NCBI RefSeq assembly: GCF_000027125.1
Contig: NC_017626.1
DNA from: Escherichia coli 042
GTDB taxonomy: Bacteria; Pseudomonadota; Gammaproteobacteria; Enterobacterales; Enterobacteriaceae
DNA: 64,000 bases
Strand: one strand, 5' to 3'
Shown piece by piece: positions 61,324-62,976 of this stretch (positions are counted from its first letter, which is position 1; each line of letters opens with the position of its first letter). A program made the translations under genes and the position numbers. The notes beneath the pieces are model-generated. The model was not told the origin of the DNA. It saw only the letters and a list, made by a program, of their open reading frames with translations, and searched no databases.

Positions 61324-62976
61324 TTAATGTCCCGCAGGGCAACTGGCGCAGCGGTGTTGCTGCTCAAACTGACTAAAGAAATTATTGCCTTTATCATCTA
61401 CCAGGATGAATGCGGGCAGATTTTCCACTTCCATCATCCACACCGCTTCCATACCCAGCTCCGGGTATTCCAGGCAACGCAGACTTTTGACATATTCTTG
61501 TGCCAGTAACGCAGCTGCACCGCCAATACTTCCCAGATTGAAGCCGCCATGTTTGTGACAGGCATCGGTGACCTGCTGGCTGCGGTTACCTTTCGATAAC
61601 ATCACCAGACTGCCGCCAGCAGCCTGGAAGGTATCGACATAACCGTCCATTCGACCGCCCGTGGTTGGACCCAGTGAACCGCAGGCCATGTTCTCCGGTG
61701 TTTTCGCCGGGCCAGCGTAATAGACAATATGATGCTTCAGGTAATCCGGCATCGGTTCGCCGCTATCCAGCCGCGCTTTTATTTTGGCGTGGGCGATATC
61801 GCGCGCCACTACGATGGGACCACTTAACGACACGCGGGTGCCTACCGGTAATCTGGCGAGATCCTGCATCACGTCACGCAACGGACGGTTTAGATCCAGC
61901 TGTACATGTTGCGCGTGATTTTCTTCCCGCAGTGAGGCTGGAATATATTGCCCCGGATTGTGTTCGAGTTTTTCCAGCCAGATACCGTGCTTGTTAATTT
62001 TTGCTTTGATATTGCGATCGGCAGAACAGGAGAGCGCCATAGCTATCGGGCAAGAGCCACCGTGACGCGGCATACGAATGACGCGAATATCATGAGCGAA
62101 ATATTTACCCCCAAATTGCGCACCAATACCAAATTGCTGACTGGCCTCGAGCAACACTTTTTCCAGCTCAATATCACGGAATGTTTGTCCCTGCTCGTTT
62201 CCGCTGGTGGGCAAATTATCGTAATATTTCGTAGAAGCCAGCTTGGCAACTTTTAAGGTTTGATCGGCTGAAAGCCCTCCGACGACAAAGGCGATGTGGT
62301 AAGGCGGGCAGGCAGCGGTGCCCAGCGATTTCATTTTTTCGATTAAAAATGCGGTCAGTTTTTCTGGTTGCAATAGGGATTTGGTTTCCTGATAAAGCGC
62401 GGCTTTATTGGCGGAGCCGCCCCCTTTATTAACACAGAGAAAATGGTACTCATTACCAGCGACAGCGCTGATATCAATCTGCGCCGGGAGATTGGTTTGC
62501 GTATTGACTTCGGTATACATATCCAGTGGCGCATTTTGTGAAAAGCGCAGATTATTTTCCTGAAAAGTGGTGTAAATGCCTTTGCTTAAGGCTTCGGCGT
62601 CGTTGCCTCCGGTCCATATCTGTTGCCCTTTACTGGCAATAATAGTTGCGGTGCCGGTATCCTGACAGTTGGGTAATACCCCTTTTGCTGAGACTTCAGC
62701 ATTACGTAATAACTGCAACGCAACGTATTTATCATTACTACTGGCCTGCGGATCGTTAAGAATGCTGGCGACCTGTTGCAAATGAGCGGAACGTAAGAAA
62801 AAAGAGGCTTCATAAAATGCCTGCCGGGCAAGCAGCGTTAATGCTTCAGGAGCGATTTTTATCACTTCTTCGCCGTCTAATTCCGTTACTGTAATATGTT
62901 GATCGCTAATTAATGTATATTCTGTACCGTCTTTATTTTGTAGAAACGGTTCTTGCCAGATAAATGGTTTGGACAT
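61324..62976 (-). CDS. Class I (4Fe-4S) fumarate hydratase-family hydro-lyase paralog, 550 aa; candidate mesaconase
   Basis: Collinear with FumA/FumB along its length (LPxCQDTGTA, [40 protein letters not shown]) but a divergent paralog with a different C-terminus (…RCASCPAGH). Confidence 0.85.

Follow-up and report, generated by a model that had tools for sequence, protein, structure and literature searches.

The window analyzed here is a stretch of 64,000 nucleotides from Escherichia coli 042. Beyond the suc genes, it holds a LysR-family regulator gene, cobO, fumD and, at its end, the 3′ part of a symporter gene (Table 1). The open reading frame of fumD occupies exactly the coordinates given in the ORF list, has an ATG start with a Shine-Dalgarno-like AAGGTG located 11 nt 5′ of it, and its product ends with RCASCPAGH. 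Two Pfam domains were found in this product, Fumerase (PF05681, residues 50–325, E 2.5e-74) and Fumerase_C (PF05683, residues 331–536, E 1.8e-78), and the window protein is a full-length, single-chain class I (Fe-S) fumarate hydratase. An earlier reading of the letters alone (the sequence-only reading) had placed a class I fumarase with this C-terminus at the same position, and the ORF list and the Pfam matches confirmed it.

Table 1. Genes and elements of the fumD locus (nucleotide positions in the window), active-site residues of the window protein aligned to Leishmania major FH-2 (LmFH), and positions beside the active site that differ between the FumD clade and FumA/FumB (residue numbers of the window protein).
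Feature	Position	Strand	Basis or comparison
sdhX small RNA, 3′ UTR of sucD	59108-59208	plus	alignment with annotated K-12 sdhX
LysR-family regulator (LTTR), 301 aa, convergent with fumD-cobO	59773-60678	plus	ORF; same gene as ECs_0755; drawn as LTTR in PMC4682846, Fig 5
GC-rich hairpin, 11 bp stem	60682-60708	minus	pattern match only
cobO/cobA, cob(I)yrinic acid a,c-diamide (cobalamin) adenosyltransferase, 200 aa	60712-61314	minus	NCBIfam NF004637, 295 bits (cutoff 185); TIGR00708, 246 bits
fumD, class I (4Fe-4S) mesaconase/fumarase, 550 aa	61324-62976	minus	ORF list, Pfam, NCBIfam
GltP/DctA-type dicarboxylate/amino acid:cation symporter, 3′ part	63084-64000	minus	DctA/GltP NCBIfam models, below cutoff as truncated
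Active-site residue	Q105		LmFH Gln134
Active-site residue	D106		LmFH Asp135
Active-site residue	R144		LmFH Arg173
Active-site residue	G187		LmFH Gly216
Active-site residue	H305		LmFH His334
Active-site residue	R392		LmFH Arg421
Active-site residue	T438		LmFH Thr467
Active-site residue	T439		LmFH Thr468
Active-site residue	R442		LmFH Arg471
Active-site residue	K462		LmFH Lys491
Clade contrast	103		N in FumD clade, T in FumA/FumB
Clade contrast	111		T in FumD clade, I in FumA/FumB
Clade contrast	192-193		A-A in FumD clade, T-Y in FumA/FumB
Clade contrast	307		G in FumD clade, A in FumA/FumB
Clade contrast	311, 312, 314, 315		I, A, A, L in FumD clade; V, G, G, V in FumA/FumB
Clade contrast	440		G in FumD clade, A in FumA/FumB
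Clade contrast	461		S in FumD clade, A in FumA/FumB

When the window protein was compared with the NCBIfam models, the equivalog model of FumD (NF011921) was passed with 1282.3 bits over a cutoff of 1060, and positions 1–550 of 550 were covered. The models of FumA (NF011919, 922.4 bits, cutoff 1105) and of the FumB type (NF011920, 920.2 bits, cutoff 1094) were both failed.

The cobO gene, whose product forms the glutamate mutase cofactor adenosylcobalamin, starts only 9 nt past the fumD stop codon, and for this reason the two genes are probably co-transcribed. The hairpin lies within the 33 nt that separate the convergent cobO and LysR genes and, judging from its pattern, is likely the terminator of the fumD-cobO operon. 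The matches of the LysR regulator to NCBIfam models of the GcvA/DsdC type were all sub-threshold. On the upstream side, the symporter gene was found 107 nt from fumD, with no terminator-like site detected between the two (62977–63083), and fumD and cobO would be expected to be co-transcribed with the upstream genes. This symporter, a putative glutamate importer, is cut by the window end (the full gene measures 1281 nt in related genomes) and differs from ECs_0758 in 1 amino acid over 304. The 5′ end of the operon lies outside the window, and an Rfam search of the 59–64 kb region, B12 riboswitch included, returned no regulatory RNA. The gene order is that of the GltP-FumD-CobA-LTTR arrangement published by Kronen & Berg (Fig 5 of PMC4682846), in which the gene annotated as cobO in the closest genomes is drawn as CobA. 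An accessory-operon location had been proposed from the raw sequence, and fumD is indeed accompanied by the LysR, cobO and GltP-like genes in an island.

The identity with K-12 ends right after the sdhX terminator (match at 59183–59200), at approximately position 59208, which is the left edge of this island. The island is inserted between sucD/sdhX and cydA, the same place where K-12 carries mngR-mngA-mngB. Both E. coli O157:H7 Sakai and the closest complete genomes show the operon continuing upstream with the genes of a DUF4387 protein, an AtuA/DUF1446 protein and methylaspartate ammonia-lyase, followed by glmE, glmL and glmS, and beyond glmS by two hypothetical genes and then cydA. The LysR, cobO and transporter genes were observed in the window as in the published cluster, and the mutase and lyase genes were observed in strain N3, the second-best genome match, and in Sakai; the window stops within the transporter gene, and by analogy with these genomes the mutase and lyase genes presumably follow beyond that point in the source strain. 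The AtuA/DUF1446 (456 aa) and DUF4387 (105 aa) genes were always found between the methylaspartate ammonia-lyase and transporter genes in the FumD cluster, for example at 17426–19110 of locus L001 and 11934–13618 of locus L002, both outside the window.

The active site was analyzed using L. major FH-2 as structural reference (PDB 5L2R, with chain numbering equal to native numbering plus 36), and the list of its active-site residues was taken from bioRxiv 10.1101/2022.09.03.506457. Residues 18–536 of the window protein were aligned with 5L2R (E 1.9e-210), without internal gaps after residue 24. The [4Fe-4S] ligands Cys133, Cys252 and Cys346 of LmFH fell on C104, C223 and C317, respectively. In a four-way alignment, these three cysteines and the ten active-site residues were invariant among the window protein, Sakai ECs_0757, K-12 FumA and K-12 FumB. 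With cluster ligands and catalytic residues all invariant, the window protein is, by homology, an intact Fe-S hydro-lyase. The retention of the class I motifs, including the conserved Cys-containing segments, had been noted from the raw sequence and held true at the level of the aligned ligands. Loss of the Fe-S ligands, which the sequence-only reading had named as an observation that would speak against it, was ruled out by the 5L2R and four-way alignments, all three cysteines being kept. The cluster ligands and the catalytic Asp and Thr residues are conserved between L. major FH-2 and the window protein, whereas the former has an N-terminal extension, lacks the enterobacterial CxxC tail and acts as a fumarase.

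The fumA and fumB genes of the source strain are located elsewhere on the chromosome, outside the window. Therefore, the status of fumD as a third paralog is not readable from the window itself, and the K-12 copies, fumA (b1612) and fumB (b4122), were used for comparison in global alignments, together with the syntenic ECs_0757 of O157:H7 Sakai. The window protein showed 67.8% protein and 67.4% nucleotide identity to K-12 FumA, and 66.7% protein and 65.9% nucleotide identity to K-12 FumB, so that about a third of the positions differ, in agreement with the divergence from FumA/FumB at many positions first described from the sequence. It shares with FumA and FumB the single-chain two-domain architecture, the three Cys ligands, the ten active-site residues and a C-terminal CxxC, but its identity to them reaches only 67–68%, and mesaconate is the substrate preferred by its FumD ortholog ECs0757.

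By contrast, 541 of the 550 amino acids (98.4%) were identical to Sakai ECs_0757, and the two syntenic genes showed 98.5% nucleotide identity. ECs0757 (= ECATCC700728_0849) has the same length, the same RCASCPAGH tail, the same LysR, cobO and GltP-like neighbours and the same sucD-cydA site as the window gene. The nine substitutions (window to Sakai: P76Q, I113V, T136S, N175D, V243I, T265A, M302L, D411E and V447I) are conservative or peripheral, and none of the nine falls on a catalytic or cluster-binding residue or on an immediate neighbour of one. Between the two genes, 16 synonymous and 9 non-synonymous differences were counted (dN/dS 0.16), which indicates that fumD is under purifying selection.

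The distribution of the gene was also analyzed. The published share of strains carrying FumD was 26.5% for E. coli and 90.6% for O157:H7 (PMC4682846). Among 5426 complete E. coli genomes, fumD was found in 1121 (20.7%), with 95–99% nucleotide identity to the window. The exact window allele was present in none of the 5426, the best nucleotide identity being 99.0%, and the contribution of the window is one more slightly divergent fumD allele. The number of copies in these genomes was 1122; one was located on a plasmid record, in a genome with two copies. Orthologs with 76–87% identity were detected in Citrobacter, Buttiauxella, Enterobacter, the Klebsiella oxytoca group, E. fergusonii and Pseudescherichia, as well as in Salmonella enterica subspecies salamae and diarizonae. 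In Pseudescherichia vulneris (CP086374.1) the methylaspartate module occupies the same sucD-cydA site and lacks cobO. More distant homologs were found in Hafnia alvei (71% identical), linked to LysR, cobO, B12-biosynthesis and glutamate mutase genes, and in Providencia (69% identical), linked to none of these. On the metagenome scaffold of the Hafnia homolog, fumD-cobO and the LysR gene lie beside cbiA-like, cobS, cobT-like and glutamate mutase genes, and a type VI secretion cluster adjoins them.

These identities bear on the origin of the gene. With 550 versus 548 aa, the window protein is close in length to FumA and FumB, and its domains follow the same order, as would be expected if fumD had arisen recently by duplication of fumA or fumB. 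However, FumA and FumB are 90.0% identical to each other, the window protein departs from both by far more than that, and it scores under the NCBIfam cutoffs of the FumA and FumB-type models. Moreover, orthologs of 76–87% identity exist across other enterobacterial genera and, therefore, the split between FumD and FumA/FumB must be old. A recent duplication, another finding that the sequence-only reading had said would count against it, was ruled out by the identity to the K-12 copies and has practically no probability.

The C-terminal tail of the window protein is two residues longer than that of FumA and FumB and has a different sequence. The divergence of the C-terminus that had drawn attention in the raw sequence is therefore real with respect to sequence and length, but a C-x-x-C is kept in all three tails (QCTRCVK in FumA, QCANCTK in FumB and RCASCPAGH in the window protein). 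The motif was present in 34 of 34 aligned sequences, comprising 30 enterobacterial database homologues, the window protein, Sakai ECs0757, and K-12 FumA and FumB. By homology, these cysteines would not be cluster ligands. Since the CxxC motif is common to FumA and FumB, the tail was rejected as a functional discriminator.

Positions beside the active-site residues were then compared between the FumD clade and FumA/FumB using the 34-sequence and the four-way alignments, and the contrasts are collected in Table 1. G440 follows the catalytic Thr pair and precedes Arg442, and S461 adjoins Lys462. As a hypothesis drawn from these alignments, a few substitutions adjacent to the active site (e.g., A440G and A461S) may set the preference for mesaconate. 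Gly440 is shared by the FumD clade and the Hafnia homolog, whose gene is linked to those of glutamate mutase. It was discarded as a clean mesaconase signature, as it also occurs in the Providencia homolog without glutamate mutase linkage.

The enzymology of this protein family member has been published. The extra class I fumarase of E. coli was identified and named FumD by Kronen & Berg (PLoS One 2015, PMC4682846), and ECs0757 of E. coli O157:H7 was purified anaerobically and its kinetics were determined. The kcat/Km values obtained were 2e6 M-1 s-1 for mesaconate and 7.5e5 M-1 s-1 for fumarate (both in Table 2 of PMC4682846; Vmax 671 U/mg on fumarate), 2.6e5 M-1 s-1 for (S)-malate and 1.1e5 M-1 s-1 for (S)-citramalate. 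The ratio of efficiencies between mesaconate and fumarate was approximately 2.7 for FumD, compared with 0.04 for FumA and 0.19 for FumB. ECs0757 is oxygen-labile, and Fe2+ together with thiol is reported to restore its activity. FumD is a good fumarase as well, with only a 2–3-fold preference for mesaconate. The same work presented the FumD phylogeny (Fig 6) and described several independent origins of mesaconases (PMC4682846).

The window fumD is therefore one allele of an enzyme whose biochemistry has been characterised and published, already known and not new. From its sequence, the window allele would be expected to have the same kinetics as ECs0757. The sequence-only reading had flagged a substrate-shifted class I fumarase paralog with mesaconase as a possibility, and this was correct: the 98.4%-identical ECs0757 is a mesaconase, although the biology had been published in 2015. 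The phylogeny and the kinetic comparison on fumarate, mesaconate and tartrate suggested as checks were also available in that article, with mesaconate preference as the result; the finding is, for this reason, not new.

A tartrate dehydratase had been put forward in the sequence-only reading as another option. The class I fumarase superfamily includes the L-tartrate dehydratase TtdAB, and weak matches of the window protein to the NCBIfam models of TtdA and TtdB were obtained, but their scores of 47.9 and 73.4 bits are far under the respective cutoffs of 365 and 264, and the window protein is one fused chain, whereas TtdAB consists of separate alpha and beta subunits. The kcat/Km of ECs0757 on (S,S)-tartrate was 50 M-1 s-1, below the values of FumA (635) and FumB (2130), which excludes this option for the ortholog. 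(2R,3R)-Tartrate and meso-tartrate were not converted by K-12 FumA, FumB and FumC, and the substrates listed as assayed with FumD do not include these two (PMC4682846). A tartrate dehydratase, or another specialised hydro-lyase, is thus a highly improbable assignment.

The role of the enzyme in the cell was considered next to its genetic context. The window fumD is very probably the E. coli FumD ortholog, a mesaconate hydro-lyase belonging to a methylaspartate-pathway module. In the mechanism proposed, glutamate would be imported by the GltP-like carrier and converted into (2S,3S)-3-methylaspartate by the AdoCbl-dependent glutamate mutase (GlmS/GlmE, with the reactivase GlmL), the adenosyl-B12 cofactor being supplied by CobO. 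Methylaspartate ammonia-lyase would then yield mesaconate and ammonia. Mesaconate hydration by FumD, presumably a homodimer-type, oxygen-labile [4Fe-4S] class I hydro-lyase, would be the fourth step of this horizontally distributed module, giving (S)-citramalate in a reversible reaction; the hydration of fumarate to (S)-malate would be its second reaction. The genes of the module would be transcribed as one unit under the control of the LysR regulator.

Alternatively, FumD could be a redundant third fumarase isozyme, acting in vivo on fumarate and malate in the TCA cycle or in an anaerobic C4 role, with an incidental mesaconase activity. The fumarase activity of ECs0757 is substantial and mesaconate is hydrated to some degree by every class I fumarase tested (PMC4682846), but the shift in the efficiency ratio towards mesaconate sets FumD apart from FumA and FumB. 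In the same way, fumD adjoins the sdh-suc genes of the TCA cycle, but this adjacency corresponds to the insertion site of the island and not to operon membership, because sdhX and a terminator intervene. The genes to which fumD is linked are those of glutamate mutase, methylaspartase and the B12 adenosyltransferase (the last one missing in P. vulneris). Hence a redundant fumarase was considered quite unlikely, and the assignment of FumD to the methylaspartate module was preferred.

A known parallel is the clostridial two-subunit mesaconase MesAB of the methylaspartate pathway, which catalyzes the same reaction as FumD and whose genes are also clustered with those of glutamate mutase and methylaspartase. 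Unlike FumD, MesAB consists of separate alpha and beta subunits, and citramalate lyase genes adjoin its own, whereas in the enterobacterial FumD cluster the enzyme is a single fused chain and a citramalate lyase gene is missing. Enterobacteria that carry the island have no citramalate lyase. In strain ATCC 700728, expression of the cluster was undetected in all conditions tried, no growth benefit from glutamate was obtained and no citramalate lyase activity was found (PMC4682846); consequently, the physiological pathway is unproven. For the downstream step that citramalate metabolism lacks, the AtuA/DUF1446 and DUF4387 proteins are candidates. It is a rather doubtful proposal, though one with some chance of being right, that the (S)-citramalate made by FumD enters an undescribed route, perhaps one in which these two proteins take part, or that citramalate is exported as an end product and acts on the host. 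A search of the post-2015 literature on the physiological role of the cluster and on DUF1446/DUF4387 returned nothing relevant. Rather than the enzyme, it is the pathway that would be worth studying, namely the conditions in which E. coli and its relatives in the gut switch on this glutamate-to-citramalate module, and the fate of citramalate.

Regarding nomenclature, the name fumD ("fumarase D") is used in the K-12 RefSeq annotation for an unrelated protein of 69 aa, YdhZ (b1675; 4933–5142 of locus L011), and the 550-aa FumD is labelled only "class I fumarate hydratase" in RefSeq and "fumA" in Sakai. The clash was confirmed from the K-12 annotation, and a literature search found no paper linking the name fumD to ydhZ.

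Finally, several observations were made elsewhere in the window. The best match among the 5426 complete E. coli genomes reached 98.4% over 36000–59100 (gltA, sdh and suc) and 99.2% over the island (59100–64000). The SucA and SucD proteins of the window were identical to those of Sakai. The sucB-sucC spacer (56802–57071) is of 274 nt in the window, as in K-12, and of 93 nt in N3 and Sakai. Repeats of the REP type (Rfam naRNA4, RF02564) were found in this spacer (one, at 56913–56983) and upstream of sucA (two, at 52420–52585). A cluster of seven tRNA genes on the minus strand (4845–5546) and a match to the ES036/CssrF small RNA (8305–8347) were also detected, both of them ordinary E. coli core content.
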